A stretch of DNA of 16,363 bases from Verrucomicrobiota bacterium (GTDB taxonomy: Bacteria > Verrucomicrobiota > Verrucomicrobiia > Verrucomicrobiales > DEV007). The stretch is taken from the NCBI GenBank assembly GCA_045046875.1, contig JASFYY010000101.1, positions 1 to 16,363 on the forward strand. Direction: 5' to 3'. The number at the start of each line of letters is the position of its first letter. The stretch's first letter is position 1. The notes under the pieces were generated by a model. That model had not been told where the DNA came from. It saw nothing but the letters and a program-made list of their open reading frames with translations, and searched no databases. Position numbers and translations under genes: made by a program. Below are positions 113-16,155 of this stretch, one piece after another.

Positions 113-505
113 TTGTCCACCGAGTTAGTACCTAGCCAGGATTATAAACGACCCGTCTTTGATTTTCTTCTTAAGCTGCCAGAAAAATACCTCATGGAAG
201 ACACAATGCTCATCGGTGACCTGAACACAGGGCGACATTATGAAGACGAGGAAGGGGCTACATATGTTTCTGCCCACCAGTTTGATGCGCTTCTGGAACA
301 AGGGTGGATCGATTCGTGGCGAATTCGTAATCCTGACGCACGGGAATTTACTTGGTTTTCGCGGGGTTATAATAATGGTTTTCGCCTTGATCATACCCTT
401 GTCTCTCCGGCGATGAATGAGCGGATTACGGATGTGAAGTATTCTCATACGGAACGAGAAGCAGGAGTAACTGACCACTCTCTGATGGTGGTGGATGTTG
501 ACTGA
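113..505 (+). pseudogene. 5'-truncated endonuclease/exonuclease/phosphatase (EEP, ExoIII-like) gene; only the C-terminal half is present
   Basis: C-terminal EEP motifs are present: IGDLN, GWIDSWR, FTW, RLDH and DHS. The N-terminal motifs (xWNxx, LQE) are absent. In-frame TAA stops at 14-16, 77-79 and 95-97 prevent upstream extension, and the only start at the 5' end is TTG at 113. Confidence 0.7.
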
Positions 506-578: not shown

Positions 579-1535
579 TCACATTCCTGATTTCCGTATC
601 ATTCCTTTCAAAAAGGGTTCTCTAGATATGGATCGTCTTGTGGCATCGCAAATAACAAATACTCCCTCTCCGTAAGGCATGCCAAAATCATTCGAATCGG
701 ACGCGCGGGCAAATACCGTCAATAACGAACTGCCAAAAAGCCTTACAACGACAATAGGACCTTCTTGATTAAGATTTACAATGGTTATTCCATGTTCGTG
801 TTTTCCGAGATCTGAAAAAAAATCGTCTGCAGGTGCTGCGCCATCAAAAGATGCCCCGTGAATTTTAACATCCGCAGCTTCTTCCGCTGTTGAAGCGCGG
901 ATAGCTTTCTGCCACTCGCCGTTTAGTGGGTCATCCAGAAAATCCTCACCCAAATACTCAAAACATGCGAGATAAGCGATTTTCATCAAGCCTGCCTTAA
1001 TTACTGTTAGGTTGAACGATGCTTGCAGATGCAATTCCTGATTCTCACTTCTTTCGACTTTCACTTCACCGATAGACATACCCTTATTTTTAAGATTGGC
1101 TTCCATCTGAGTGAGTAGTTCTTGAGACTGTCCCTCTGTCGCGACAATCCGTTTGGGCCTTCCATCGATATCAATGTCAACCGGATTTCGGTGGTAAACC
1201 TCAACTGCCCCCGAGTGCGGTAGAGTTATATCAACGGGTCGCCCCCCTTCTACTGTTGTTCCTCTGAGTTTCAATTTTGCAGTTCCTGATCGTGATTCTA
1301 TTCCATGAGTAGTCCGTGGAATAGCGACACTTGGATCTTCGAGAAATCGCGCATCGAAGGTTTGCCCAAATTCGTTATTTTCTTCCTCACAAGCACGAAC
1401 CGAATACCCATTTGGGCCACCTAGTGCATCTAGAATGATGTGCTCCCGGCTCGTTTTTTCAAGTTCATTGAGCAGCTTCAAGGTATAAGGACATCTTTGC
1501 TGCCATTCTATATTTTCTTTTGCTTGATCAGTCAT
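579..1535 (-). CDS. HNH endonuclease (HNH_5-like N-terminal domain) with an uncharacterised C-terminal region, 318 aa
   Basis: N-terminal CPY...SREHIILDALGG...ACEEENNEFG matches the EHIIPxxLGG...CxxCNxxFG pattern. A later KIAYL motif is typical of this family. It starts 10 bp after the stop of the upstream gene. Confidence 0.72.
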   Translation of the reverse strand: MTDQAKENIEWQQRCPYTLKLLNELEKTSREHIILDALGGPNGYSVRACEEENNEFGQTFDARFLEDPSVAIPRTTHGIESRSGTAKLKLRGTTVEGGRPVDITLPHSGAVEVYHRNPVDIDIDGRPKRIVATEGQSQELLTQMEANLKNKGMSIGEVKVERSENQELHLQASFNLTVIKAGLMKIAYLACFEYLGEDFLDDPLNGEWQKAIRASTAEEAADVKIHGASFDGAAPADDFFSDLGKHEHGITIVNLNQEGPIVVVRLFGSSLLTVFARASDSNDFGMPYGEGVFVICDATRRSISREPFLKGMIRKSGM

Positions 1536-1545
1536 AGATTTTTTA

Positions 1546-3420
1546 TCATTTTCTTAGAGGAGTTCCTTCGGTTTCGCCTAATTGCTCCCGAACACATCTA
1601 TAACCATGTAAAAGGAGCCCGAGGGTCAACCACCAAACATAACAGACTGTTCCAGTGAAATATGCACCATCGGGCGCTAACCCATGCGACATTTCATTGC
1701 GGAGATTGTGCCCGAACCGTTCAATCAAATTCCCTCTTAGATCGAATGCAATATCTTCTCCGAAAATTTGCCTCATCTTTGTATGGCAAAGGAGCCACCC
1801 AATATCATGCTCCTTCTGAGTTCCATCAGATTCCAAGGTCGACGTTACGACATCGTGTTGCTGGAAAACGTATCTGATCGACTGTTCCAATTGAGGAATA
1901 AGGATATGGGCTGCAACAATCCAATCCCCGTAGAAACCAGCTTGAATCCCGCGGAGATAGAAATACTCATGCCCTTCAGGGACAAATGGATTGAGCTGGA
2001 TCAGAAATGACAAATCCCTCATGCGAAACGAATGCTCATTTAGTAGCACACGTCGAGCGGGTTCGATTATTGCATCCACACGGTAGGGCCACTCTGATTC
2101 TTTGGCCTGCTGCCACATATCATCACGAAACGCTTGTTCATTATCTGCGTCAGAAGACGGACTGATGCCTGGTGAAGTGGCCGCCACTTTCCCAGAGTAA
2201 TCCTTACTAACTGCTGGAAACATATTGTGTAAGAATTGCTCGTTATTCTCTTCTACCTGTTTTTTATAGGAAACCGGATCTATAGGCCGAGTAATTAAAA
2301 TGAAACGCATTATCGCTTCTTGAAAAGAGTACCCATGAACATGATTCCGAGCAGCTTCTTGAGATTTTTTAAATTTTTCTTTGAAGCCTGGAATCTCCTC
2401 AAAATTAATCTCCATAGGACTCATTTCGGCGAGTGACGCCTTTTGAAGCTCAAGAAACCGTAAGTGGATTTTTTTGATTTTTTCAGTATCGGCTTTCGAC
2501 TGCCTCAAGACCTCTATTCCTTTGCCCACCCAATGCGCAGCGTATCCAGCCCCATTTCTTTCCTTCCCTTGCTCACCACGGTTAATCAAAGAATCTCCAC
2601 GCGCCTCACCACACCGAAGCTCGTCATCTCCTGACCCGGCCTTGCGGTGCCAACGACAAGCCAACTCCCAATAATCGTCTGCAAAATGGGTTTCTTCTCT
2701 GGCCTGAAAAACGGCGGCAAGCTTTTCGCTTAGGGCAGCATATATAGCAGGATCGCCAGATTTATATTCCATCAAATACCTCATCATTCGAGCGCAAAGC
2801 AATCCTGATTCAACATCTCCTTTATATCGTTCAATCACGGCTTCTATCTCACCGATAACTTGCATATGGAGATCCTTGTGATATCCCAGCTTTGCGGCCA
2901 ATTGTAGAGCTCTCTCAAGACGTTCAGCAAATACAGTCCACGAATCTGCATTTTCGAGACGCTTGGCCGAATCAATGTAAAAGCCGACTGCCTTGCGTGC
3001 GTAAATATGGCTTTTCCGACATTCCCAAATAACGTCTGAGATCCGTGCACCCAACTCAGAATCTTCCACATTCTCAACTATTCCTTCTAACGCATCAAGG
3101 TCGTCTTCAGTGAGGTCTTCTGCCATATGTGAACGATGCTTCCCATCTGGCGAAAAAGGCCCATAAGGGTTACCACTGATATCATAGTTGGGCATATAGG
3201 AACAGAGCCTCCCCAAAAGCCTATGAACACTAAATCCAACACCGTCTCCAGCATCTTTCAGCTCTTTTGCACGTCTAAATAATCCTCTCTGGAACTCAAA
3301 ACATTCCTTCATAGGTTCTTCTTTAAGGATAGACACCCAATCACTGGCATAGGTAATTATATCCTTAGAAGTAACCACATACCCCTCAAAGATCTGAGAC
3401 TCATCATTTTTATCAGTCAT
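1546..3420 (-). CDS. DUF4209-domain protein: helical N-terminal region plus C-terminal HEPN-type domain (putative RNase), 624 aa
   Basis: C-terminal AAHILIPQLEQSIR...DLRGNLIERFGHNLRNEMSHGL is characteristic of DUF4209. The R-X4-H motif RNEMSH is encoded at 1684-1701. The ATG overlaps the upstream stop (ATGA at 3417-3420). Confidence 0.8.
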   Translation of the reverse strand: MTDKNDESQIFEGYVVTSKDIITYASDWVSILKEEPMKECFEFQRGLFRRAKELKDAGDGVGFSVHRLLGRLCSYMPNYDISGNPYGPFSPDGKHRSHMAEDLTEDDLDALEGIVENVEDSELGARISDVIWECRKSHIYARKAVGFYIDSAKRLENADSWTVFAERLERALQLAAKLGYHKDLHMQVIGEIEAVIERYKGDVESGLLCARMMRYLMEYKSGDPAIYAALSEKLAAVFQAREETHFADDYWELACRWHRKAGSGDDELRCGEARGDSLINRGEQGKERNGAGYAAHWVGKGIEVLRQSKADTEKIKKIHLRFLELQKASLAEMSPMEINFEEIPGFKEKFKKSQEAARNHVHGYSFQEAIMRFILITRPIDPVSYKKQVEENNEQFLHNMFPAVSKDYSGKVAATSPGISPSSDADNEQAFRDDMWQQAKESEWPYRVDAIIEPARRVLLNEHSFRMRDLSFLIQLNPFVPEGHEYFYLRGIQAGFYGDWIVAAHILIPQLEQSIRYVFQQHDVVTSTLESDGTQKEHDIGWLLCHTKMRQIFGEDIAFDLRGNLIERFGHNLRNEMSHGLAPDGAYFTGTVCYVWWLTLGLLLHGYRCVREQLGETEGTPLRK

Positions 3421-4535
3421 TTTATATACTTCGCTTCTGCACGTATTAAAGCGCCATCAAGATCGCTCGGATCACGATCAAACTCATCTGCAACAAGTTG
3501 GCAATATTCAGTCCAAGACTCATTCCTCCGATAGTTCGGTCCTACTTTTGGATGTTTGACCTTTTTGCAAAAACTCCAAGGTGAAGGAAGAATTGTCATT
3601 GAATTAAAAGACCTGATCAATTCTTCGCTATCTCCCTGAATTTGCTGCCGCTCCAAATGTGCTCCCACTGGTAATCGCAAATATTGGAAGCGATTCATCA
3701 GCTTCCCCACTTCCGATTGATGGGTCCGGGGCTCAAACAGCAAACATTTATCAGCAGATTGAATCTGAAGGGAATTTAGCAAATCAATATCATTGGATCC
3801 GATAGGCACTATGGATGTTTTCCGGTTTCCAACTTTGTAAACCTGCGGATCATAAAAAAAGAGACAACTAGTCGGACTTAAGGGGAACACCAATTGGAAT
3901 CCAGATCGACCGAACCCTGAAAACGACCTTCCACTTCCTCTCCTATCCAACAATTGATTCATTAGTATCACTGGGTGATCACTTGTATAGAACAACTTAT
4001 TCGAGCCTTCTGATGGTGTTAAAAATTTGTAATGGAGCGTTTCCATTTCCATGAAGTTTGGGACAAGGTTATTTTTAAAAAGCATTCCGCTCACACCTTC
4101 AAAGTCCATTAACCCGGGCCGCCAACCTTCTTCCGGTTCCCTTAACTCTCCTTTATCTATGCCATCCTTTAATACAACATCCGCCCAATATTTAGGAAAT
4201 TGTTTGGCAATTTCAGCAGCCTTCCGAGTTCGAAGATAAAATATAACTGTCAGCATCCTCATCCCCACCAGTTCTTCAACGCTCATTGTCCTCCGCTTAG
4301 CTATTTCTCGAATTACGCTTGCGCTGGTTTGCTCCACATACCTCAACCAATCATCAGCAGAATCCGTCCCGTTATGACGATAAAAATAGTTAGCCTGACA
4401 ATGATTTTTAATCTTATCTCTCCCAATAAATCTGTAAGGGTCTAGAGCAGCTATTCCGATCTCTTTCTCGTCACAGAAATGACGGAGGTAATGCTGAGGC
4501 ACGAAATGTTGTTTCTTATTTTTTGGATCTGCCAT
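3417..4535 (-). CDS. DUF4238-domain protein, 372 aa
   Basis: N-terminal KKQHFVPQHYLRHF, CQANYFY, YLRT, FYTSDHPV and FPLSP motifs are typical of DUF4238. Confidence 0.85.
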   Translation of the reverse strand: MADPKNKKQHFVPQHYLRHFCDEKEIGIAALDPYRFIGRDKIKNHCQANYFYRHNGTDSADDWLRYVEQTSASVIREIAKRRTMSVEELVGMRMLTVIFYLRTRKAAEIAKQFPKYWADVVLKDGIDKGELREPEEGWRPGLMDFEGVSGMLFKNNLVPNFMEMETLHYKFLTPSEGSNKLFYTSDHPVILMNQLLDRRGSGRSFSGFGRSGFQLVFPLSPTSCLFFYDPQVYKVGNRKTSIVPIGSNDIDLLNSLQIQSADKCLLFEPRTHQSEVGKLMNRFQYLRLPVGAHLERQQIQGDSEELIRSFNSMTILPSPWSFCKKVKHPKVGPNYRRNESWTEYCQLVADEFDRDPSDLDGALIRAEAKYIK

Positions 4536-4691: not shown

Positions 4692-5600
4692 TTAGTTGTC
4701 ATCGAAAAAATCTCCAAAATCACTCATTTTCTCTTGAATGATTTGTCGTGCCATCATGGCATAAGGCTTACTAGAGCCTCTTGCCGCAACTAATTGCTTC
4801 ATCGAAGCGAGCATCACTTCTTCAATTGCCAATTCCACAGGTTTCGGAAGTGACTGCTCATCAATCATAATTTTCGCCAGGCTTTTAATAGTGGCGATAT
4901 TCAACTCGATAATACGAAGATGCTCCCTCCTGTTTAGCACCAAACCTGAACGATTTAGCCCATACACCTCAATCGATGCAATGGCCATTTCCCCCTTTAG
5001 CCCACTTGTTTGCACTGGTAAAAATACAGCTTCTTTTTCATGAATTTGAAGTACTTCACCAGGGTCATCTTTGCATGGATGTAAAAGCAACGGAACCTCA
5101 TCTCCCAGATCATTCTTTCCAGTCGCACGATAGTTTTCGTCTTGAATAGGAAATCGGTCCTTTTTGCCTAAAGACATCATATTTCCACTTACCGCATCCT
5201 CTTGCTTCCGCTCTCGATTGCAATCAATACAACTCGGCAGGAGATTATCCCATTCCGCAGCGAGCCAGTAGTATGCAGGCTTCATCTCACCACCTCCCTC
5301 GATTTTAACACGCCCCTTTGGTCGCCAATGCTCAACATCCATTGGCTGGGTGGCGGCATAGAGGGTCTCACAGTAGGCGCACTTTCCGTGAAACAATTTG
5401 GTGAGCGCCCCTTTTACTTCCTCGTGCTTATATAGCTTAAAATTATAGCTCCATCTTGCTTTATCTTTCCCTTTCTTTTCCCATTTTTCTAACGATTCCT
5501 TAGCTAGGCGAGTCTCCTTAGCCGCGCTTGCTTTCCCCTTAGTATCAGGAGCACTCAGCACATTCGGTTTATCCGCCAATTTACGATCAACACGTATCAT
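4692..5600 (-). CDS. PtuB-like HNH endonuclease (Septu / retron type I-A effector family), 302 aa
   Basis: Motifs FHGKCAYCE, DVEHWRPK, YYWLAAEWDNLLPSCIDCN, FP, LLHPCKDDP and SIEVYGLNR. Start reassigned from 5639 to the ATG at 5600 (MIRVDRK), which has an ATGA overlap with the upstream stop at 5597-5599 and GGAGGAGGG immediately upstream. Confidence 0.85.
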   Translation of the reverse strand: MIRVDRKLADKPNVLSAPDTKGKASAAKETRLAKESLEKWEKKGKDKARWSYNFKLYKHEEVKGALTKLFHGKCAYCETLYAATQPMDVEHWRPKGRVKIEGGGEMKPAYYWLAAEWDNLLPSCIDCNRERKQEDAVSGNMMSLGKKDRFPIQDENYRATGKNDLGDEVPLLLHPCKDDPGEVLQIHEKEAVFLPVQTSGLKGEMAIASIEVYGLNRSGLVLNRREHLRIIELNIATIKSLAKIMIDEQSLPKPVELAIEEVMLASMKQLVAARGSSKPYAMMARQIIQEKMSDFGDFFDDN

Positions 5601-7924
5601 TCGCCCTCCTCCTGATCGATTATAGATGCATAACGCCATAAATCGACGACTCGCTTTTTAACTTCTTCTCGACGCTTATTACGATCATCATCTTCATCCT
5701 GATTCTCAGTTTCAATTGTTTTTTGATCGGCTAGAAAATCATCGATCGCTTCGTAAATGAGTTGATCTCGCCTTGTGTACCCAAGCACTCCATACTTATG
5801 AAGCTCACTGGAAAGAGTATTGCGCCTAACATTCTCATCACTGGTCAAATTATCCCGTCTTGCGAGCAACTGATAGTACTCTGTAAATTTACGATCAACA
5901 TCAGGATCGATTGTGCTTTCTAATCCAAAGTGGTTTGAGGTAAGCAGCTGATCTACTCGGAGTTTTTTTGGTGACGGCAATTCATTTTCAATTCGGACGA
6001 TTTGATCTGCCTCATACTGTTCGGCCAATGGCAATGTGGAGTCAGGCTCTCGTTTAACCACTAGCACCTCCCCCTTTCTAAGCCCACGCAAACAGAGCGG
6101 ATCATGAGTGGATGTGAAAAATTGCATCTGTGGAAACGCTTTCCTCAATCGAGATACGATCCTCATCTTCCACCTAGGATGTAGATGAGTTTCCAACTCA
6201 TCGATTAGAACAATTCCCTGGACGAATTGCATATCCTTCACATTACCCGGAACACCTGCCATGATATCACAAGCAAGGGCTACGATGGTTTGATATCCTG
6301 CACTCAAGTTTTCCAACGGTTGCCCGTCGACAAGTATAGTGCTCCCATCTTTTTCTACTGACTGCTCATCCTTTAGCCCAATTAGGTCTTTGATGGCTAG
6401 TCTTGCTGGCCTAAACTCCTCTTCACTCAATAAAGAAAGCCAATTGCCCGCATCAATCAGAGGGGTAAATGGGTCAAACATATTGATTATCTCAATATTG
6501 TTTTCCTTGCTCGATAAATTGGAAGCCTTTGAGTCAATAGGTAATAAACGAGTCGATCCATACGACCTAACAAATATTCCATGATTTTCTCCACCAGATT
6601 CGAAAGAGAACTTCGTTTTGGTAATTTTTAATACAATTATATCGCCTGAAGAGAGAGCCAGCCTTACTTCCCCTACTCGCTTCCCTCGCATCAAGAATCG
6701 CTCAGGCCTAAGAAAAGGCTTAAGCTCGGGATCAACTAAATACTGCTCACCAGCTAACGCCAACGTGATTGCCTGTAATATTGAACTTTTCCCAGAGCCG
6801 TTTTCACCCAATAAGGTTATCCATTCTTTGAATTCCTTAATGGAAGATTCTTCCTCTTCGCTTTCTAGGACTGCCTCAGAAAATTCAATCGTTGGTTCGA
6901 TGGTAAGCGAATGAATTGCTTTAAAGTTACTTATTGAAATCGATTCAATAGAAACATTTTTTATGAGCTCCTCAATCTTTACTATTCCGTCACCTTTGGT
7001 ATCGACCAATTGCACAATTGGCCTGTTCCGTTGATCATCTAACCAATTAACATCATCAGGACAAGTTTCCAGCATCCTGCTGACATCATCCATATTTCCA
7101 TTTCGTATTTTATTCTCAATGGTAATTTCGAGTTGCAGTCTTCCAGATAGCCTCTGTGCCACTCGATATATTAGACCCTCTATATCTCCACGCGTCAGTT
7201 GAGATATCGTCAACCGTGCTAGCATCTGCCGCTTCATAGCAATAAACTGCTTATCACTTCTAATATATTCCAATACAAGCTCGAGCAATATATCAACCGC
7301 GTCTGTCGAATCACCCGCTCGCGTCCAAAAAATTTTAAAGCGTTGCGCTTCTTTACTCCGCAGATCAATAAGGCGATAATTATTCAAGCCAAATACATCT
7401 ATTGTCGCTCCTCCACGATTAAATTTGTTAAAAAAAGCCGAGGAGCTTGATATAGTTCCTTTCCCATCAAACTCGAGATGATACTCTGGCTGATCTACGC
7501 AAGGGTCGATTAAATATGGCTTTTCTTTTTTTAAATCTCTATCCCCCAGTAAAGCCCTGCTGTCCTCATCTGCCAGCGGAAATTTTTGCCCCTTACTTTC
7601 ACTACAACGGCTACAGGATAAATAAAGATTTTCCCAGCTATAGGCAAGCCAAGGATAGAGTGAAACAGGACGAAAGTGATTTATCACCTTGCTATCTTTT
7701 TTCGTCAGTTTTTGTTCACAATAGGCGCATTTGCCATTGAATAAGTCGAACAAGGGATCGGTCAGATTGGATCTTAATTTTCTATAATCAATACGCCATC
7801 GAGTTTTTTTCTGTGTCTCCTCCGGGACATCAAACTGTGCCTGCAGATCGATTTCCATTTTTTCATACATCGCCGAAGAGAAAAAATGTGGCATCGGAAT
7901 AGATTTTCGATCGATATAAATCAT
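5597..7924 (-). CDS. Fusion of a PtuB-like HNH domain (about aa 1-240) and a PtuA-like ABC-type ATPase, 775 aa
   Basis: N-terminal FNGKCAYCE...NHFRP...WLAYSWENLYLSCSRC...LIDPC...TIDVFGLN. C-terminal ISISNFKAI, Walker A GENGSGKSS (6782-6808), YGSTR, signature LSAGY, Walker B/D-loop VLIDELETHLHPRW, H-loop STHDP and LLTSNHFGL. AGGAG lies 9 nt upstream of the ATG. Confidence 0.88.
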   Translation of the reverse strand: MIYIDRKSIPMPHFFSSAMYEKMEIDLQAQFDVPEETQKKTRWRIDYRKLRSNLTDPLFDLFNGKCAYCEQKLTKKDSKVINHFRPVSLYPWLAYSWENLYLSCSRCSESKGQKFPLADEDSRALLGDRDLKKEKPYLIDPCVDQPEYHLEFDGKGTISSSSAFFNKFNRGGATIDVFGLNNYRLIDLRSKEAQRFKIFWTRAGDSTDAVDILLELVLEYIRSDKQFIAMKRQMLARLTISQLTRGDIEGLIYRVAQRLSGRLQLEITIENKIRNGNMDDVSRMLETCPDDVNWLDDQRNRPIVQLVDTKGDGIVKIEELIKNVSIESISISNFKAIHSLTIEPTIEFSEAVLESEEEESSIKEFKEWITLLGENGSGKSSILQAITLALAGEQYLVDPELKPFLRPERFLMRGKRVGEVRLALSSGDIIVLKITKTKFSFESGGENHGIFVRSYGSTRLLPIDSKASNLSSKENNIEIINMFDPFTPLIDAGNWLSLLSEEEFRPARLAIKDLIGLKDEQSVEKDGSTILVDGQPLENLSAGYQTIVALACDIMAGVPGNVKDMQFVQGIVLIDELETHLHPRWKMRIVSRLRKAFPQMQFFTSTHDPLCLRGLRKGEVLVVKREPDSTLPLAEQYEADQIVRIENELPSPKKLRVDQLLTSNHFGLESTIDPDVDRKFTEYYQLLARRDNLTSDENVRRNTLSSELHKYGVLGYTRRDQLIYEAIDDFLADQKTIETENQDEDDDRNKRREEVKKRVVDLWRYASIIDQEEGE

Positions 7925-7933
7925 GTTGCAATT

Positions 7934-7938
7934 CTCCT
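7934..7938 (-). promoter_or_regulatory. Shine-Dalgarno site of the HNH-ATPase gene
   Basis: AGGAG on the minus strand, 9 nt before the ATG at 7924. Confidence 0.6.
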
Positions 7939-8097: not shown

Positions 8098-8123
8098 GTG
8101 TTTTGCAAATATTTGAAAATCAC
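8098..8123. repeat. Imperfect inverted repeat, possible operator
   Basis: GTGTTTTGCAAAT-ATTTGAAAATCAC, centred on the perfect palindrome CAAATATTTG, in the intergenic region upstream of the Septu-like operon. Confidence 0.5.
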
Positions 8124-8147: not shown

Positions 8148-9368
8148 TCACTCCTCTGCCCCACGCATTCCTATTACATCTGGCAGCCCTGAATGCATCC
8201 AGGGCAATGGTCCGCCGCATACTGGGTCCAGAATATCGGCACGGGCTTCGACCCATCTCAGCCACAGGTCGAGACCGGAGCCATACGGTTGCTCGCCATA
8301 TCGCTGAAGCACCTCACTTTTGCAGGCTTTGTGGAACGAGCGAATGGACTCAGCCTTTTCATGTTTCTCGACATCCTCCAACAACTTCTCGACGGCCCGC
8401 GCCTCTTGCCTACACTGTTGCTGAAAATGCCATCGGATCTCTTCGCGCTCCTTTCTACGCTTCTCCTCAATTGCCCACTCGATTTCCCGCTTCTTCCGCT
8501 CGATTGTTTCCAGGCGCATATATTCTCCAGCTTGCGGGAAGCGAGCCACTATCTCACTGACGAACTGCTCAATTCGCTGAATTTTTCCATCCCGCCACAC
8601 TCTCCTTTTATTGAACCCACTCGACACATCTAACGAAAATTCGAGCTTTCCTGAAGGAACATCCTCCCAGTCTTGCCACGAGTATTTTCGATCCTCAGGC
8701 TTCTTGAAGTATTCCCGCCTGTTCTTTTCCCGCAGCGAGAAGCAAACGTGCTCCTCCCCCACTAATACCCAGCAACATTCGCTAGGAGTGCCAGCTCTCT
8801 CGTAGTGAGGCTTTTCAAGATCACGTCGAGCTGTTGGACAATCCATGCTTGAGGACAGTTTAAGGCCCTGCGCTTCAACTCCTCGCACCACGGCATCGAG
8901 AAACAGGAGCGCACGATCCAGAGAACTCGCCGACACCTCGGCATCGAGCCTCTTTCTTACCTTTCTATCTCGCCAACTTTTATTGGACCAAAGCTCACGC
9001 AAATGGGTTCGTGTTTTTTTAACCAGTGGATGAAGGTTATCCAAATTGTCCGCGATGGTGATTTCGGGGAAAGATTCCTTCTCTTGTGGAGTGGGACGAT
9101 GACGATTTATCTCACGCTGGCGCTTACTGTTCTCCTTATTCACAACGTGTTCCAAGCGGGTGTCCTCATTGGCTTTTGGTAGTTTTTTCTTTTTTAGTTT
9201 TTTCCCGGATGCGGTTTTTGTCCAATACCCCAAGGGAGGAGTTGGTATATTCATTGATACACAGATACGTTTGAGTGCACTGCTTGAAATACCCAGTTCA
9301 GCGGCGATTTTCAATGCAGGGCGAGCCCAGGCATCCTCATAGAGCTTTTCACGTTTTAGAGTGGTCAT
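8148..9368 (-). CDS. Hypothetical protein with an N-terminal HTH-like DNA-binding segment and a C-terminal coiled coil, 406 aa
   Basis: N-terminal REKLYEDAWARPALKIAAELGISSSALKRICVSMNIPTPPLGYWTK resembles a conserved uncharacterised family seen on mobile elements (RxxLYxxVW...A..GIS...L...C....IP.P.RGYW.K). Later WRDGKIQRIE, a charged coiled coil and WLRWVEARADILDP fit the same family. Confidence 0.75.
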   Translation of the reverse strand: MTTLKREKLYEDAWARPALKIAAELGISSSALKRICVSMNIPTPPLGYWTKTASGKKLKKKKLPKANEDTRLEHVVNKENSKRQREINRHRPTPQEKESFPEITIADNLDNLHPLVKKTRTHLRELWSNKSWRDRKVRKRLDAEVSASSLDRALLFLDAVVRGVEAQGLKLSSSMDCPTARRDLEKPHYERAGTPSECCWVLVGEEHVCFSLREKNRREYFKKPEDRKYSWQDWEDVPSGKLEFSLDVSSGFNKRRVWRDGKIQRIEQFVSEIVARFPQAGEYMRLETIERKKREIEWAIEEKRRKEREEIRWHFQQQCRQEARAVEKLLEDVEKHEKAESIRSFHKACKSEVLQRYGEQPYGSGLDLWLRWVEARADILDPVCGGPLPWMHSGLPDVIGMRGAEE

Positions 9369-9473
9369 GAGCTAATCTACACGCCAGCCACTTTCATTCC
9401 GACTTCTTGTATCCCCCATCAAACTCCTTGCAGAAAATAGGCCGTAGGTGATAGAAGTCTTTCTCAATCTATC

Positions 9474-11042
9474 ATGTCAGAAGATCACAAGAAGCAACTC
9501 GAATCCCAGCTGTGGAATATTGCCAACACCTTGCGGGGTAAAATGGGTGCCGATGAATTCCGCGATTACATCCTGGGCTTCATTTTCTACAAATACCTGT
9601 CAGAGCGGATGCATCGCTTCGCCGATGAGATCCTGAAGCATGACGGAATCCAGTTCGACAAAATCGATGAGGCGAGCGCAGACGGGCAGGAAATACTCGC
9701 CGCCATCGAGGAGGAATCAGTCGGGCGGCTGGGTTATTTCCTCAAACCATCCGAACTTTTCCACAAGATCGCAGAACGCGGTGGGCAGAAGACAGACAAT
9801 TTCATCCTCGAAGACCTAAGCAATATCCTCAAGCACATCGAGTCCAGCACCATGGGGCACGATAGCGAGGAGGACTTCGAGGGGCTGTTCGAGGATCTCG
9901 ATCTCGGCTCGTCCAAGCTCGGGAAAACCGAGAATCAGAAGAACGAACTCATCGCCAAGGTGCTCGTCCATCTCGATCAGATCGACTTCCGGCTCGGCGA
10001 CACCGAGGCCGACGTGCTGGGCGATGCCTACGAATACCTCATCGGCCAGTTCGCCAGCGGCGCGGGGAAAAAGGCGGGAGAGTTCTACACCCCGCAACAG
10101 GTCAGCACCATCCTCGCCCGCATCGTCACCACTGGGAAGAAGAAGCTCAAGAGCGCCTACGACCCCACCTGCGGCTCGGCCTCGCTGCTGTTGAGGGTGG
10201 CGAAGGAGATCAAGGACGTGGGAAAATTCTACGGTCAGGAGATGAACCCGACCACCTACAACCTCGCCCGCATGAACATGATCCTGCACGGCGTCCACTA
10301 CCAGCGCTTCGATCTGCGCAACGAGGACACTCTGGAACATCCCGCTCCCGAACACGCCGACCTGCGCTTCGATGCCATCGTCGCCAATCCGCCCTTCTCC
10401 GCGAACTGGTCGGCCAGCGCCATCCATGAGAATGACGACCGCTTCAGCGCCTACGGCAAACTCGCCCCCAAGACCAAGGCGGACTTCGCCTTCGTCCAGC
10501 ACATGGTGCATCACCTCGACCACAGCGGCACCATGGCCTGCGTCCTGCCGCACGGCGTCCTCTTTCGCGGCGCGGCGGAGGGACACATCCGGAAATACCT
10601 CATCGACGATTGTAACTACCTCGATGCCGTCATCGGCCTGCCGTCCAATATCTTCTATGGCACCGGCATCCCCACCTGCATCCTCGTCCTGAAAAAGGGA
10701 CGCGAAAACCCCGACGACATCCTCTTCATCGACGCCAGCCAAGGCTTCACCAAAGAGGGCAAGGACAACACCCTGATGCCTGAGGACATCGAGCGCATCG
10801 TCAGCACCTACCGGAAACGGGAGAGCATCGAGAAATTCAGCCACGTCGCCGAGTTGAGCGAGGTCGAGGAAAACGACTACAACCTCAACATCCCGCGCTA
10901 CGTTGATACCTTCGAAGAAGAGGAAGAGGTCGATCTCGCGGAGGTCTCGGAGAAGCTGGTCGCTTTGGAAAACGAGATGGGCGAGACGGACAAAGTCATC
11001 GCGGGGTTTTGTGAGAAACTGGGAATCAAGACACCGTTCTGA
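9474..11042 (+). CDS. hsdM: Type I restriction-modification methyltransferase subunit M (N6-adenine), 522 aa
   Basis: LWNIANTLRG, LGDAYEYLI, GEFYTP, motif I YDPTCGSASLL, motif IV ANPPF, LPHGVLFRG and NLNIPRYVD. Confidence 0.97.
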   Translation: MSEDHKKQLESQLWNIANTLRGKMGADEFRDYILGFIFYKYLSERMHRFADEILKHDGIQFDKIDEASADGQEILAAIEEESVGRLGYFLKPSELFHKIAERGGQKTDNFILEDLSNILKHIESSTMGHDSEEDFEGLFEDLDLGSSKLGKTENQKNELIAKVLVHLDQIDFRLGDTEADVLGDAYEYLIGQFASGAGKKAGEFYTPQQVSTILARIVTTGKKKLKSAYDPTCGSASLLLRVAKEIKDVGKFYGQEMNPTTYNLARMNMILHGVHYQRFDLRNEDTLEHPAPEHADLRFDAIVANPPFSANWSASAIHENDDRFSAYGKLAPKTKADFAFVQHMVHHLDHSGTMACVLPHGVLFRGAAEGHIRKYLIDDCNYLDAVIGLPSNIFYGTGIPTCILVLKKGRENPDDILFIDASQGFTKEGKDNTLMPEDIERIVSTYRKRESIEKFSHVAELSEVEENDYNLNIPRYVDTFEEEEEVDLAEVSEKLVALENEMGETDKVIAGFCEKLGIKTPF

Positions 11043-12274
11043 TGAAAGCGGCAACGACAATTCCAAAACTGCGATTTTCCGATTTCACGCAAAAGTGGAC
11101 AATTCTTCGCATGGAGAACATTGGCCGGGTGATCCGTGGTGCCAGCCCGAGACCTAAGGGGGATAAAAGGTATTATGGCGGCACAGTCCCAAGACTGATG
11201 GTGCAGGATGTAACACGGGATGGGAAATGGGTTACTCCGACGATTGATTCCCTCACTGAAGCTGGAGCTAAGTTGAGTCGGCCGTGCCCGGCAGGCACCT
11301 TGACCATAGTTTGTTCAGGAACTGTCGGGATTGTCTCTTTTCTAGCCGTCGATGCGTGCATTCATGATGGATTTCTTGCGCTTATCGACATCGACGAAAC
11401 GGCGGTAACAAAGGATTTTCTGTTTCATCGCTTAAGCACCCTTCGTGAGCAGTTTGAGCAGGGAGCAACCCATGGAGGAATATTCACGAATTTAACCACC
11501 TCTGGGATCAAGGAGTTTGAGTTTCCCGCTCCCACCCTCCCCGAGCAGCGGAAGATCGCGGACTTCCTGACGGCGGTGGATGGGTGGATCGGGCAACTGA
11601 TCCAAAAGAAAGCCCTGCTGGAGGACTACAAGAAAGGCGTGATGCAACAGCTCTTCACCCAAGCCATCCGCTTCAAAGACGAACACGGCAACGACTTCCC
11701 CGAGTGGGAGGAGAAGAAGCTGGGGGAGGCAACAAAATGGGCATCAGGAGGCACGCCATCGAAGGACAACGCTTCGTTCTGGGAGGGCGACATTCCTTGG
11801 TTGAGTGCCGCGTCCATGCACGAAAGGTATTACAGTGACTCACCGCTTAGAGTTTCAAAGGAAGGGGTGAAGTCGGGATCGAAGATGGCGCTGAAAGGAA
11901 CGCTTTTACTTCTAGTTCGCGGTAGTATGCTTTGGAATCGAATCCCAGTTGGAATCACTACACGCGATGTTGCTTTCAACCAGGACGTGAAGGCGCTTAC
12001 TCCGACAGGCAAGGTTCTCGCTGGATTTTTGCTCCAGTGGTTTATCGCTTCGGAAAACATGCTTCTCCACAAGGTGGTTGGAACTGGGATCGGCGCAGGC
12101 AAGTTGGATACGGATGAAATGAAGAGCCTACGTTTCCGTCTGCCTACGACTGAAGAACAAACCAAGATCGCCGACTTCCTCTCCGCCCTCGACCGCAAGA
12201 TCGAAAGCGTCGCCACCCAGATCACAGAGACCCAAACCTTCAAGCGCGGGTTGCTCCAGCAGATGTTTGTATGA
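11042..12274 (+). CDS. hsdS: Type I restriction-modification specificity subunit S with two TRDs, 410 aa
   Basis: IPKLRF N-terminus; two variable regions separated by conserved PTLPEQRKIADFL...KKGVMQQLF...FPEWEEKKLGE; C-terminal repeat PTTEEQTKIADFL...KRGLLQQMF. TGATG overlap with hsdM. Confidence 0.96.
   Translation: MKAATTIPKLRFSDFTQKWTILRMENIGRVIRGASPRPKGDKRYYGGTVPRLMVQDVTRDGKWVTPTIDSLTEAGAKLSRPCPAGTLTIVCSGTVGIVSFLAVDACIHDGFLALIDIDETAVTKDFLFHRLSTLREQFEQGATHGGIFTNLTTSGIKEFEFPAPTLPEQRKIADFLTAVDGWIGQLIQKKALLEDYKKGVMQQLFTQAIRFKDEHGNDFPEWEEKKLGEATKWASGGTPSKDNASFWEGDIPWLSAASMHERYYSDSPLRVSKEGVKSGSKMALKGTLLLLVRGSMLWNRIPVGITTRDVAFNQDVKALTPTGKVLAGFLLQWFIASENMLLHKVVGTGIGAGKLDTDEMKSLRFRLPTTEEQTKIADFLSALDRKIESVATQITETQTFKRGLLQQMFV
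11552..12180 (+). repeat. Internal direct repeat of the hsdS conserved regions (copies at 11552-11568 and 12164-12180)
   Basis: AAGATCGCGGACTTCCT versus AAGATCGCCGACTTCCT, 16/17 identical, both encoding KIADFL. Confidence 0.8.
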
Positions 12275-15147
12275 GTGACTCACCACCCAACACCGTTGCC
12301 ATGACCCAGTCCGAGCAGGTGCTGGAGGACGGACTGGTGGCGCAGTTGGTCGGCCTTGGCTACGCGAAGGTGGCGGTGACGGATGAGGCTTCCATGCTGG
12401 CGAACCTGAAGGCGCAGCTCGGGGCTTTCAACGAAGTGGAACTGACCGACGGGGAGTTCACCAAGGTGCTGCACCACCTGAACAAAAGCGCGGGTGTTTT
12501 CAGCAAGGCGAAGACCCTGCGGGACAGGATGAAGCTGGATCGCGAGGACGGAACAACCACCTATCTGGAGTTCTTCGATTCCACCGATCCGCTGCGCAAC
12601 CGCTGGCAGGTGACTCAGCAGGTGGCGATGGACGAGGGCAGCTACAAGAACCGCTACGATGTCACCATCCTCTGCAACGGCCTGCCGGTGACGCAGATCG
12701 AGCTGAAGCGGCGCGGGCTGGAGATGAAGGAGGCTTTCAACCAGATCCAGCGTTACCAGAAGCACAGTTTCTGGAGCGGCCAGGGCTTGTTCCACTTCGT
12801 CCAGCTCTTCGTGATCAGCAACGGGGTGAACACGAAGTATTACGCCAACGCCCGCAAGCAGTCCTTCAAGCAGACCTTTTACTGGGCGAGCGAGGACAAC
12901 AAGACGATCCGCGAGCTGAAGCCCTTCGCAGAGGCTTTCCTGAACCGGGAACACCTCGGCGGGATGATCGGCAAATACACGGTGCTCAACGAGACGGACA
13001 AGATCCTGATGGTGCTGCGCCCTTACCAATTCTACGCAGCGGTGGAGATCGTGGAGCGGGTGATTCATCCCCCGGAGACCGATCCCAATGGCTACGTCTG
13101 GCACACCACCGGCTCAGGCAAGACGCTGACGAGTTTCAAGGCGGCGCAGATCCTCACCGGGCTGCCGGGCATTTCCAAGGTGGTCTTCGTGGTGGACAGG
13201 AAGGATCTGGATTACCAGACGATCAAGGAGTTCAACGGCTTCAGCAAGGGGAGCGTGGACAGCACGAACAACACGAAGAAGCTGGTGGCGCAGTTCACCG
13301 ACGACACCAAGCTGATCGTCACCACTCTACAAAAGCTCAACACCGCCATCAGCAAGCAGGCGTATCTTGCTGCAATGGAGAAGCTCCGAGACGAGCGGAT
13401 CATTTTCATCTTCGACGAGTGCCACCGCAGCCAGTTCGGCGACACGCACAAGCGGATCGTGGAGTTTTTCCGCAATCACCAGATGTTCGGCTTCACCGGC
13501 ACCCCGATCTTCGCGGACAACGCGGCGAGCAAGAACGGCAAGAAGCACACGACCAAGGATCTCTTCCACAAGCAGCTCCACACCTATGTGATCACGGATG
13601 CGATCAAGGACGAGAACGTGCTGAAATTCGCCGTGGAATACGTGGGGCGATACAAGAAGAAGGGCGCGACCGAGATCGACATCGAGGTGGAGGGCATCGA
13701 CACCAAGGAGCTGATGGAATCCCCGGCACGGCTGGAGAAAATCACGGACTACATCATCGACCGCCACGCGGTGAAGACCCGCAACAAGGAGTTCACCGCG
13801 ATGATGTGCGTCGGCTCGGTGGATACGCTGATCAAATACTACGAGCTGTTCGCCGCGAAGAAGAAGGAGGGCAAGCACAAGCTCCGCATCGCCACGATCT
13901 TCAGCTACACCAGCAACGAGGAGGACAAGGACGCGGACGGCATTCTCGATGAGGACAGCGAGATCATCGGCGGCGAAGGCGGCAACCCCCACACGCGGGA
14001 GAAGCTGGACGGCTTCATTTCCGACTACAACGCGATGTTCGGGACGGGCTACTCGACCAAGGACACTCAGAGCTTCTATAACTACTATCAGGACATCGCC
14101 AAGAAGGTGAAGGCCGGGAAGGTGGATATCCTGCTGGTGGTGAACATGTTTCTAACCGGCTTTGACAGCGTGAGGCTGAACACGATGTATGTGGATAAGA
14201 ACCTGCGCTACCACGGTCTGGTGCAGGCGTATTCCCGCACCAATCGCATCCTCAACGAGGTGAAGAGCCAAGGGAATATCGTGGTCTTCCGCAACCTCAA
14301 GAAACGCACCGACGAGGCCATCGCCCTTTTCTCCAACGTGAACGCCAAGGAGGAAATTTTCGTGCCGCCATACGATGAGTATGTGAAGCAGTTCAATACC
14401 GTCGTGATAGAATTGCTAGCACTGACGCCCACTGTCCGCAGCGTGAAAGATCTGCCCGATGAAGAAGCGGAATTGAAATTTGTGAAGATCTTCCGTGAGC
14501 TGATGCGCTTGCGGAATATTCTGGAATCATTTTCCGAATTTGAGGATGACGACCTCGCTCTTCCTGCACAGCGCTTTGCTGATTACCGCAGCGCTTATCT
14601 GGATCTTTACGACAAGGTCAAAACGGACAATCAAAAGGAGAAAACTTCTATCCTCGATGATGTAGATTTCGAACTGGAATTGATCCACCGCGACGTCATC
14701 AACGTGCAGTATATCCTGACCCTGTTAGCGCGGCTCTACGACGCGGACGAAGCCCAGCAACAAAAACTCCGAACACTGATCCTTGATTCCGTCGCGGGAG
14801 AAATTGAGCTGCGCAGCAAGCGGGAGCTGATTCAAAAATTTATAGATGGCACCCTACCCAAGCTGGACAGCGCAGCGGAGATTCCGGATTCTTTCGAGGA
14901 CTTTTGGGAACAGGAACGGGTCAAGGCTTTTGATGCCCTGTGCAAAGAGGAGCATCTTGATCCTGATAAGCTCAAAAAGGTCATCGACAAATACGTTTAC
15001 ACAGGAGACGCCCCCCTACCTGATCCCGACATTGTCGAACTGATCGACCAACCGCTCAAACTAATGGAGAGAAAAAAAATAAGGGAGCGGGTCTTAGAAA
15101 AAGTAATCGACTATGTGGGGACTTTTATCGAAGGAATAGCGGCGTAG
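12271..15147 (+). CDS. hsdR: Type I restriction endonuclease subunit R (EcoR124I-like), 958 aa
   Basis: Nuclease RYDVTIL...QIELK and QIQRY; helicase motifs LRPYQ, HTTGSGKT, DECHR, FTGTP, MFLTGFD and QAYSRTNR; C-terminal DFELELIHRDVINVQYI. ATGA overlap with hsdS; an alternative start lies at 12301. Confidence 0.97.
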   Translation: MSDSPPNTVAMTQSEQVLEDGLVAQLVGLGYAKVAVTDEASMLANLKAQLGAFNEVELTDGEFTKVLHHLNKSAGVFSKAKTLRDRMKLDREDGTTTYLEFFDSTDPLRNRWQVTQQVAMDEGSYKNRYDVTILCNGLPVTQIELKRRGLEMKEAFNQIQRYQKHSFWSGQGLFHFVQLFVISNGVNTKYYANARKQSFKQTFYWASEDNKTIRELKPFAEAFLNREHLGGMIGKYTVLNETDKILMVLRPYQFYAAVEIVERVIHPPETDPNGYVWHTTGSGKTLTSFKAAQILTGLPGISKVVFVVDRKDLDYQTIKEFNGFSKGSVDSTNNTKKLVAQFTDDTKLIVTTLQKLNTAISKQAYLAAMEKLRDERIIFIFDECHRSQFGDTHKRIVEFFRNHQMFGFTGTPIFADNAASKNGKKHTTKDLFHKQLHTYVITDAIKDENVLKFAVEYVGRYKKKGATEIDIEVEGIDTKELMESPARLEKITDYIIDRHAVKTRNKEFTAMMCVGSVDTLIKYYELFAAKKKEGKHKLRIATIFSYTSNEEDKDADGILDEDSEIIGGEGGNPHTREKLDGFISDYNAMFGTGYSTKDTQSFYNYYQDIAKKVKAGKVDILLVVNMFLTGFDSVRLNTMYVDKNLRYHGLVQAYSRTNRILNEVKSQGNIVVFRNLKKRTDEAIALFSNVNAKEEIFVPPYDEYVKQFNTVVIELLALTPTVRSVKDLPDEEAELKFVKIFRELMRLRNILESFSEFEDDDLALPAQRFADYRSAYLDLYDKVKTDNQKEKTSILDDVDFELELIHRDVINVQYILTLLARLYDADEAQQQKLRTLILDSVAGEIELRSKRELIQKFIDGTLPKLDSAAEIPDSFEDFWEQERVKAFDALCKEEHLDPDKLKKVIDKYVYTGDAPLPDPDIVELIDQPLKLMERKKIRERVLEKVIDYVGTFIEGIAA

Positions 15148-15177: not shown

Positions 15178-15540
15178 TCAAGCAATTACTTCCAGCCCGT
15201 GGTGGATATGCGTATCATATAGTTCTGCGAACTCTACCTGAGCCGCTCCCACATCCTGCTCAAATCGACGTAGGTTAGCTCCGGTATCAACACCGATGGA
15301 ATGTAGCAGCCAACGCAGGGACTGGAGCAAAAGGCGGGGATCACGAGATAGATGGGCTCCTGCACTGGGGAAAGCATTGACGTTGTCCATGAAGGCCGAT
15401 TCAGCGCCATAGTCACTGACGACCACTACGCTGTCGATGATGTGGGTCCACCGTGGGTAGATTGCCCCCTCTACGCCATCAGCAGTAAAACTAATACCCT
15501 CTCGCAGGGCGTCTGGACTTCTATTTATCTTTAATGCCAT
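15178..15540 (-). CDS. Hypothetical protein, about 120 aa (MALKINRSPD...HHGLEVIA)
   Basis: Open frame converging on hsdR with a 30-bp gap and protein-like composition from the ATG at 15540. The longer ORF-track start at 15609 adds an unconvincing leader. No recognisable motif. Confidence 0.5.
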   Translation of the reverse strand: MALKINRSPDALREGISFTADGVEGAIYPRWTHIIDSVVVVSDYGAESAFMDNVNAFPSAGAHLSRDPRLLLQSLRWLLHSIGVDTGANLRRFEQDVGAAQVEFAELYDTHIHHGLEVIA

Positions 15541-15559
15541 TTTGCAAATTTTTGCAAAT
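15540..15559. repeat. Tandem TTTTGCAAAT x2, each copy containing the palindrome TTTGCAAA
   Basis: TTTTGCAAATTTTTGCAAAT abuts the ATG at 15540. The same 10-mer occurs at 8101-8110. Confidence 0.55.
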
Positions 15560-16155
15560 CTCGCGGAATTACTCCTACACACATACACCCGATTGAAGCC
15601 ATTTAACACGATGAAAAAATTCTATCACCTCTAGCGAAATTGCGACTCTCTCTAAATTTCATTCCCATCCACACCGACCAATCTTCCCCTCTTTCTTCCA
15701 TCGCAATTTTTTTCGCATCTTCCGTCCTCCACGCCCTTGCCTTACAAGTCTGATTGCCTGCTGCTTTTATTCCACTTGTATCCCTCTGGATCACATTGTG
15801 TAAAAAACAAGTATAAGACTGCAAACTTACTCACCTTCTTTCCCTCGGCCTTTCCTTCCCCCCTTGAAAAGCTTCGCTCGCCTTCTGCCCCTAGATTTAT
15901 TAGGCGCAGTTTTCAGCTTAGCTTTGCTTCCTCTTTTTTACCTGTTTTACAATTCATGCAACCTCCTTCTTTTCACGTTAATGTCGATTTTCATAATTCA
16001 AACGCGATTAGTTTCACGCCGTAGTCGAACTTTGTTCAATATACCATATTGAAACCTACCCTACATAAATAACTAGCGTAACGTAACGAACTATCACTAG
16101 AGCTAACTTCAATTTGAATGATCCAAACCCTGAAACCGACCTCTAGACAAATCCT

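Follow-up and report, generated by a model that had tools for sequence, protein, structure and literature searches.

A two-gene Septu module

The window analysed here is a 16,363-nucleotide stretch of DNA from a Verrucomicrobiota bacterium, the whole of contig JASFYY010000101.1 (C101) and one of the 163 contigs of a 5.6-Mb assembly that is 94.7% complete (GCA_045046875.1). At positions 4692 to 7924 of its minus strand lies a two-gene module of the Septu defence family, in which the PtuA ATPase carries a PtuB-like HNH domain at its N-terminus and is followed by a second, free PtuB. A preliminary description, made from the sequence alone, had proposed this Septu variant; both open reading frames (ORFs) and every shared motif pair that it quoted are present. 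The first gene (5597..7924, minus strand) encodes a 775-residue protein composed of a PtuB-like pseudo-HNH domain, a linker, a PtuA ABC ATPase and a C-terminal helical claw. The second gene (4692..5600, minus strand) encodes a free PtuB HNH nuclease of 302 residues, matched by the PADLOC profile PDLC00328 (E 1.8e-76). The HNH gene stands second, and its start overlaps the ATPase stop in an ATGA (5597..5600, minus strand), an arrangement that reads as translational coupling and agrees with the preliminary description. Shine-Dalgarno-like sequences precede both starts, with AGGAGGAGG ahead of the free HNH (5605..5613, minus strand) and AGGAG ahead of the fused gene (7934..7938, minus strand). 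Both are sites of the AGGAG type, and none precedes the alternative ATG at 5639. Promoter and terminator scans gave chance levels (9 vs 9.4 and 4 vs 4.1, respectively), no Rfam family matched in the window, and no repeats were tied to the two-gene module.

The N-terminal domain of the fused protein (residues 1–240; 7205..7924, minus strand) was delimited by alignment and superposition and corresponds to a whole PtuB. Residues 1–186 share 28% identity with residues 1–221 of the free HNH (E 9e-21 for this alignment), and the first 238 residues match both PADLOC PtuB1 (E 3.6e-36) and TIGR02646 (63.7 bits, cut-off 52.15). The Pfam HNH family also matches this domain above its cut-off (25.3 vs 21.4 bits). 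In the AlphaFold2 (AF2) model, residues 1–237 superpose on the whole of Ec78 PtuB (9vh1_F, residues 1–211; Z 18.2, root-mean-square deviation (rmsd) 2.8, 194 aligned). The suggestion that about 240 residues of the ATPase are a diverged homologue of the downstream gene was thus borne out. A phmmer search of the PDB with the free HNH returned two chance matches only (E 0.7). The two HNH-coding stretches retain no similarity at the DNA level (best blastn match 20 nt, E 0.08), and fused domains are as close to the partners of other loci as to their own (identity 0.258 vs 0.264). Since the two copies are also not sisters in the HNH tree described below, a recent tandem duplication was ruled out, and sequence comparison indicates that the duplication behind them is old.

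A variable linker, helical or disordered in the model (residues 246–323; 6956..7189, minus strand; predicted local distance difference test (pLDDT) below 50 at 288–313), leads to the ABC ATPase core (residues 324–650; 5975..6955, minus strand). The core contains a Walker A motif GENGSGKS, a signature LSAGY, a Walker B/D-loop LIDELETHLHP and an H-loop STH, and it superposes on E. coli PtuA (8ee4 and 8eea) with Z 26.4–26.6. We pooled 237 proteins, chosen as the best matches to the fused query, and all 237 carry the HNH-like domain. Among them K379 and D575 occur in 237, H607 in 236 and E576 in 233. Gly456, at the likely Q-loop position, occurs in 236 of 237 and, by reading rather than from an HMMER alignment, appears to correspond to the G-x-x-R stretch of E. 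coli PtuA. For type I Septu, a glycine at the Q-loop site has been reported and linked with weak catalysis (PMC12804668). The C-terminal helical domain (residues 651–770; 5615..5974, minus strand) corresponds to the claw with which PtuA binds PtuB (PMC12819146, PMC12475279). Its helices lie at 674–774 in the AF2 model, and the alignment to 8eea_C reaches residue 713. Over residues 324–713 the superposition on E. coli PtuA gave Z 26.6 and rmsd 6.2 (340 aligned). The claw residues S663, F666 and G667 are conserved in 237/237 proteins.

Catalytic residues of the free and fused HNH domains

In the window, the free HNH has an intact set of E90-H91, N119 and N128 together with four zinc cysteines. 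The fused domain retains the zinc cysteines C66, C69, C104 and C107 as well as H83 and N99, and it has N82 in place of E, S108 in place of N, V80 in place of D and V87 in place of K. The four replaced residues are near-invariant among free partners. Because these residues are lost (positions 82, 108, 80 and 87), the fused domain of the window itself is probably inactive.

The two copies were compared across 25 loci with an intact fused gene, the window and 24 others. All 25 free HNHs carry E-H / N / N at the four positions of the catalytic site. An acidic residue before the histidine is present in all 25 free copies vs 13 fused ones, the catalytic histidine in 25 vs 7, the second (last) asparagine in 25 vs 8, and the histidine and second asparagine together in 25 vs 0. 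The structural positions did not follow this pattern: the four zinc cysteines are kept in 25 free and 24–25 fused copies, and the middle asparagine (N119) and the proline after the His motif (P94) in 25 of each. Mean pairwise identity is similar in the two sets (0.327 free, 0.277 fused). In 18 of the 25 loci the fused-domain histidine has been exchanged for R, Q, L, N or others, and every partner is intact. Larger database sets gave the same picture, with a D/E-H..N motif in 117 of the 118 free HNHs that could be called (out of 120) vs 61 of the 231 callable fused domains (out of 237). On a FastTree of the ATPase part, the His status of the fused domain changes at least 42 times (shuffled 68 ± 3), pointing to repeated loss and not to one old event. 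The equivalent histidine is reported as essential for defence in tested systems, both in Ec78, where H57A abolishes it (PMC12640716, PMC12673091), and in EcB88 as H75 (PMC13096335). Two positions are conserved specifically in fused domains: position 40 is Q in 83% and position 140 is D in 94%.

At the level of residue conservation, the fused domain is across the clade a decaying pseudo-nuclease, in which selection maintains the fold and zinc binding but not catalysis. On the free PtuB, selection for catalysis is strict. The preliminary description had given the ATPase "its own HNH"; this holds for the presence of a whole PtuB-like domain, but the catalytic residues have decayed in most members. 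The decay of the catalytic site and the predicted docking site of the fused domain (see below) are the new points of this analysis.

A Septu with two working nucleases, in which the fused domain is a second active enzyme at least here and in the quarter of members with the full motif, would account for the retained H83 and N99, for those 61 domains and for the Pfam HNH score. The replacement of the histidine in 18 of 25 loci beside intact partners, and the recurrence of such losses across the ATPase tree, argue against it. In addition, Asn stands in the window at the place of the acidic residue before the histidine, which the HNH motifs of BrxU and HEC-06, members of a different HNH family, require (10.1101/2024.01.29.577857). 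We consider two active nucleases quite unlikely.

Distribution, docking and surroundings of the fusion

A protein search with the fused protein gave 901 matches among 8000 scored candidates, and in 143 of the best 150 representatives of a 50%-clustered library (counted by eye) one stretch spans both domains. A genome scan with the single protein found no match, and an alignment-based scan supplied the loci. Those examined for context (10 genome, 20 metagenome and 23 of 40 plasmid matches listed) are a sample and not a census. At least 24 of the matches listed have an intact fused gene (4 genome, 1 metagenome and 19 plasmid loci); the remaining loci comprise 3 broken fusions and otherwise unfused or partial ATPases. 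Named hosts include alpha-, beta- and gammaproteobacteria, Bacillota and Bacteroidota, and the source names of matching proteins add Planctomycetota, Actinomycetota and one archaeon. No full-length match occurred in 400 genomes of the same phylum, with 2 candidates scored per genome. Full-length matches were likewise absent from 60 relatives, five of which gave weaker partial matches that were unfused forms where examined. Among sequencing runs, a search listed no RNA run with the module and one DNA run with a share of 0.07. The preliminary description had itself named a one-off read-through or an assembly artefact as what would undo its proposal. For such an event, or for a recent tandem duplication, speaks the position of the window on a single 16-kb contig of a 163-contig assembly; against it speak the full-length homologues, the presence of the fusion in complete plasmid records and the lack of DNA similarity between the HNH copies. 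An explanation of this kind is hardly credible.

A tree of the ATPase part separates 25 fused and 3 broken-fusion loci from 16 unfused rows with an SH-aLRT (Shimodaira–Hasegawa-like approximate likelihood ratio test) support of 99. This tree was made by a quick method with SH-aLRT support only and a midpoint root, leaves out rows below 100 bits or spanning fewer than 280 profile positions, and includes two identical unfused rows. It fits a single fusion event behind the clade, with the proviso that sampling began with a fused query. A phylogeny of fused vs free HNH domains, as the preliminary description had proposed, placed 21 free partners and the partner of one broken locus in one clade (97/97). 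The fused domains lie outside it on long branches, with 4 changes on this tree; the single origin is read from the ATPase tree. Distances between fused domains track ATPase distances (rho 0.40).

Directly downstream of the intact fused gene, a free HNH is present in 25/25 loci, the window included. This constant pairing of the paralogues would suit a pseudo-enzyme/enzyme pair, in which the fused copy is the dead half of an HNH dimer and inhibits the free HNH or gives it specificity; for a retron HNH, a dimer on tRNA has been mentioned from a low-confidence AlphaFold 3 (AF3) prediction (PMC12475279). However, the divergence of the fused domains is hardly matched by that of the free ones (rho 0.15), and the PtuB-binding claw is fully conserved in the clade, so that the canonical site should suffice for binding of the free HNH. 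Such a dimer therefore appears improbable to us.

The prediction is that the fused copy uses its N-terminal arm to dock in cis onto the core of the ATPase, leaving the C-terminal claw free. The AF2 model of the whole fused protein has a mean pLDDT of 85.7 and a predicted template modelling score (pTM) of 0.83. In a model lacking the claw (residues 1–628) the pTM rises to 0.89, which places the fused domain on the ATPase core, and in both models the domain packs rigidly against the ATPase. The same rise argues against the fused copy filling the claw in cis. Covariation between the HNH-like domain and the remainder of the protein is in modest agreement, five of the top 20 pairs joining residues 10–45 to residues 475–515 (K40-R508, F31-I511, R42-D513, T41-I479 and F15-P488). 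The docking comes from monomer models, in which cis and trans contacts within a dimer are not distinguishable. In solved PtuAB complexes one PtuB is clasped by two PtuA C-terminal domains (PMC12819146, PMC12475279). Prediction of a complex for the verified homologous pair L010 (fused residues 1–722 and free residues 1–277) scored 0.30, the mark being 0.32, and weighs neither for nor against binding.

Two family members, P0058 and P0095, have TPR repeats inserted between the HNH-like domain and the ATPase, and an unfused sister ATPase at locus L008 (3985-7230) has a SIR2-like domain on its N-terminal side. Together these raise the possibility that the N-terminus serves as a sensor slot. They also bear on the view that the fused domain is purely structural, a stabilising cap or oligomer spacer without sensing, and that the module works as an ordinary Septu type I. 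The conserved residues of the domain belong to the fold and not to a catalytic surface, its packing in the models is rigid, and broken fusions stand beside intact ATPase and HNH frames, all of which a structural add-on would explain. It would explain less well why a 240-residue zinc domain with its own conserved residues is maintained across several phyla, or the additional domains found at this same end. We regard a purely structural role as unlikely but not negligible.

The gene pair lies in a horizontally acquired defence island, and by analogy with known Septu its role would be in defence. Its GC content is 0.424 vs 0.51 for the genome, a value this low being found in just 12 of 1675 genome windows, and PADLOC places it between a type I restriction-modification (R-M) operon and a PDC-S39 gene. 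The operon, hsdM-hsdS-hsdR (9474-15147, plus strand, GC 0.554), is complete and divergent from the low-GC minus-strand cluster. Downstream of the pair are three co-oriented low-GC genes (579-4535, minus strand), which are likely further defence genes. The first encodes a DUF4238 protein (372 aa) and overlaps the PDC-S39 / DUF7380+DUF4209 gene (624 aa), and the third encodes a 318-aa protein with a weak HNH_5 match. Upstream, an ORF of 406 aa (8148-9368, minus strand) shows a weak N-terminal RWP-RK-like (helix-turn-helix) match and none in PADLOC, NCBIfam or PHROG. A 21-nt near-palindromic direct repeat (90%; 8101-8121 and 15540-15560) and an 18-nt inverted pair (89%; 9446-9463 and 15613-15630) flank the 406-aa gene, the R-M operon or both; they may represent regulator sites or the ends of an element, or be due to chance. 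At the start of the contig, an exonuclease III-like (xth) gene is represented by its C-terminal part (113-505, plus strand).

Other loci differ in their surroundings. At plasmid locus L040 a retron St85-family reverse transcriptase (RT) gene (5641-6654) is convergent to the free HNH, and at plasmid locus L037 an RT-domain gene (6819-7196) lies nearby; the annotation of the other 21 of 23 fetched plasmid regions showed none. In three alphaproteobacterial plasmids (L049, L050 and L054) a patatin-like phospholipase gene closely follows the free HNH on the same strand, a possible third component in a subclade.

Place within Septu and proposed working

The module is a stand-alone, retron-less Septu type I variant belonging to a distinct, widespread clade. 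Both proteins match PADLOC Septu type I profiles, PtuA1 at E 3.8e-182 and PtuB1 at E 1.8e-76; the preliminary description had suggested a search with PtuA/PtuB profiles. Measured against the type I reference (E. coli 8EE4/8EE7/8EEA and the PtuB1 profiles PDLC00328/00319/00329), it has a PtuA-family ABC ATPase (Z 26.4–26.6 to 8ee4/8eea), a downstream PtuB-family HNH with catalytic His/Asn, the ATPase-then-HNH order, no RT and a likely Gly at the Q-loop site. The PtuA fold includes the claw (Z 26.6 to 8eea_C), which by analogy would bind PtuB. The difference is that tested or solved Septu PtuA proteins are without an N-terminal PtuB copy (8ee4 has 465 residues).

Retron membership was rejected: PF00078 has 0 matches in the genome (assembly 94.7% complete), and the window has no Rfam match. 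Septu type II and the type I-A retrons (Ec78/Eco7, Ec83/Eco4) share the PtuA/PtuB effector pair, and the fused domain superposes on Ec78 PtuB. Retron I-A PtuA also uses an added N-terminal domain, there for RT binding (PMC12804668), but in the window this domain is a PtuB copy and not the retron domain. The NCBIfam Ec78 scores are far under cut-off (PtuA 86 vs 500; PtuB 68 and 54 vs 150). OLD-family and retron I-B ATPase-TOPRIM fusions (GajA, the Eco8 effector) likewise join an ABC ATPase and a nuclease-fold domain in one chain. In those fusions the nuclease is a C-terminal TOPRIM with catalytic motifs kept (PMC7736814), whereas in the window a decaying HNH sits at the N-terminus and a separate protein would be the active nuclease of the pair.

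The preliminary description had put the module forward as a candidate distinct subtype, and this stands in part. The fusion marks its own ATPase clade, and no description of an HNH-fused PtuA, nor an experimentally tested member of the clade, was found in the portions of the literature searched; the former is provisional, the ABC-ATPase classification in which such a fusion would most probably be listed lying outside those portions. On the other side, three PADLOC PtuA1 profiles (PDLC00292, PDLC00288 and PDLC00291; 726–773 positions) already cover the fusion end to end (E 3.8e-182 to 1.3e-103), PDLC00292 matching residues 1–764. These long profiles are the best match for 5/5 other fused proteins tested, and short PtuA profiles are preferred by 3/3 unfused ATPases. 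According to PMC8565338, PADLOC recognises only Septu type I and the retron-linked type II, and its profiles come from clusters of at least 5 sequences among the Septu loci that Doron et al. listed. The fused architecture was thus most likely among those original loci and sits unnamed inside Septu type I.

In our best reading, the fused copy acts as a regulator or sensor without catalysis. An ancestral PtuA would have acquired a whole PtuB copy at its N-terminus. As in known PtuAB, ATP-bound ATPase dimers would then hold the free HNH in paired claws, infection would activate or release it, and the free HNH would cut tRNA or DNA, aborting infection. The fused pseudo-HNH would set the assembly and gating of the ATPase, the least certain step, either because it binds a phage product or nucleic acid, or because it takes the place of the surfaces through which higher oligomers form; a PtuA6:PtuB2 (6:2) assembly has been reported for PtuAB (PMC12640716). 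The whole picture, with the free HNH as the killer and the fused copy as a non-catalytic module shaping assembly and gating, is the one we favour with moderate confidence, and it overlaps in part with the alternatives discussed above. A more specific proposal, that the dead PtuB is an integrated decoy or sensor whose PtuB-like surface catches phage anti-Septu proteins or phage nucleic acid and which switches on the free HNH by way of its arm on the ATPase, is possible but on balance doubtful.

Several observations weigh against the favoured picture. H83 and N99 of the window align with His57/Asn73, named as the catalytic dyad of Ec78 PtuB (PMC12804668), and this dyad is kept in 148 of 232 fused domains, with the full motif in the 61 domains noted above. 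Moreover, Ec78 PtuB aligns without an Asn directly after the fourth cysteine, so S108 alone is no proof of inactivity. The free database set was gathered by likeness to the free HNH of the window and is less diverse than the fused set (mean identity 0.546 vs 0.47); the comparison of paired loci is free of this bias, but plasmids account for 19 of the 24 loci, with many from rhizobia and some closely related. The covariation box was picked post hoc, and its margin is small, the best box in 8 shuffles holding 2–4 pairs. Distances of the ATPase and of the free partner are not significantly related (rho 0.12, 144 of 2000 permutations as high). Finally, the fusion is broken in three loci by an apparent frameshift or an insertion sequence (IS), so the fused domain may be dispensable. 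In L039 (2477-4773) and L050 (1591-3820) the HNH-like part and the ATPase are in different frames, and in L055 (1150-4015) an IS630 element interrupts the N-terminus; in all three the ATPase and free HNH frames are intact. L050 is almost identical to L049, whose fusion is intact, and the same partial match occurs in two further plasmid records.

The substrate of Septu is disputed, with DNA given in one study and tRNA-Tyr in another (PMC12640716, PMC13096335), and what activates stand-alone Septu is unknown according to PMC12475279. The clade described here, which annotation tools currently hide under 'PtuA', offers a natural two-state comparison within one operon: the PtuB attached to the ATPase is decaying catalytically, and the free one is intact. 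If the fused domain is only structural, it would be a modest footnote to Septu diversity. If it is a decoy or sensor, the clade would be a stand-alone Septu with a built-in, identifiable trigger module corresponding to the retron of type II, and would deserve a subtype of its own.

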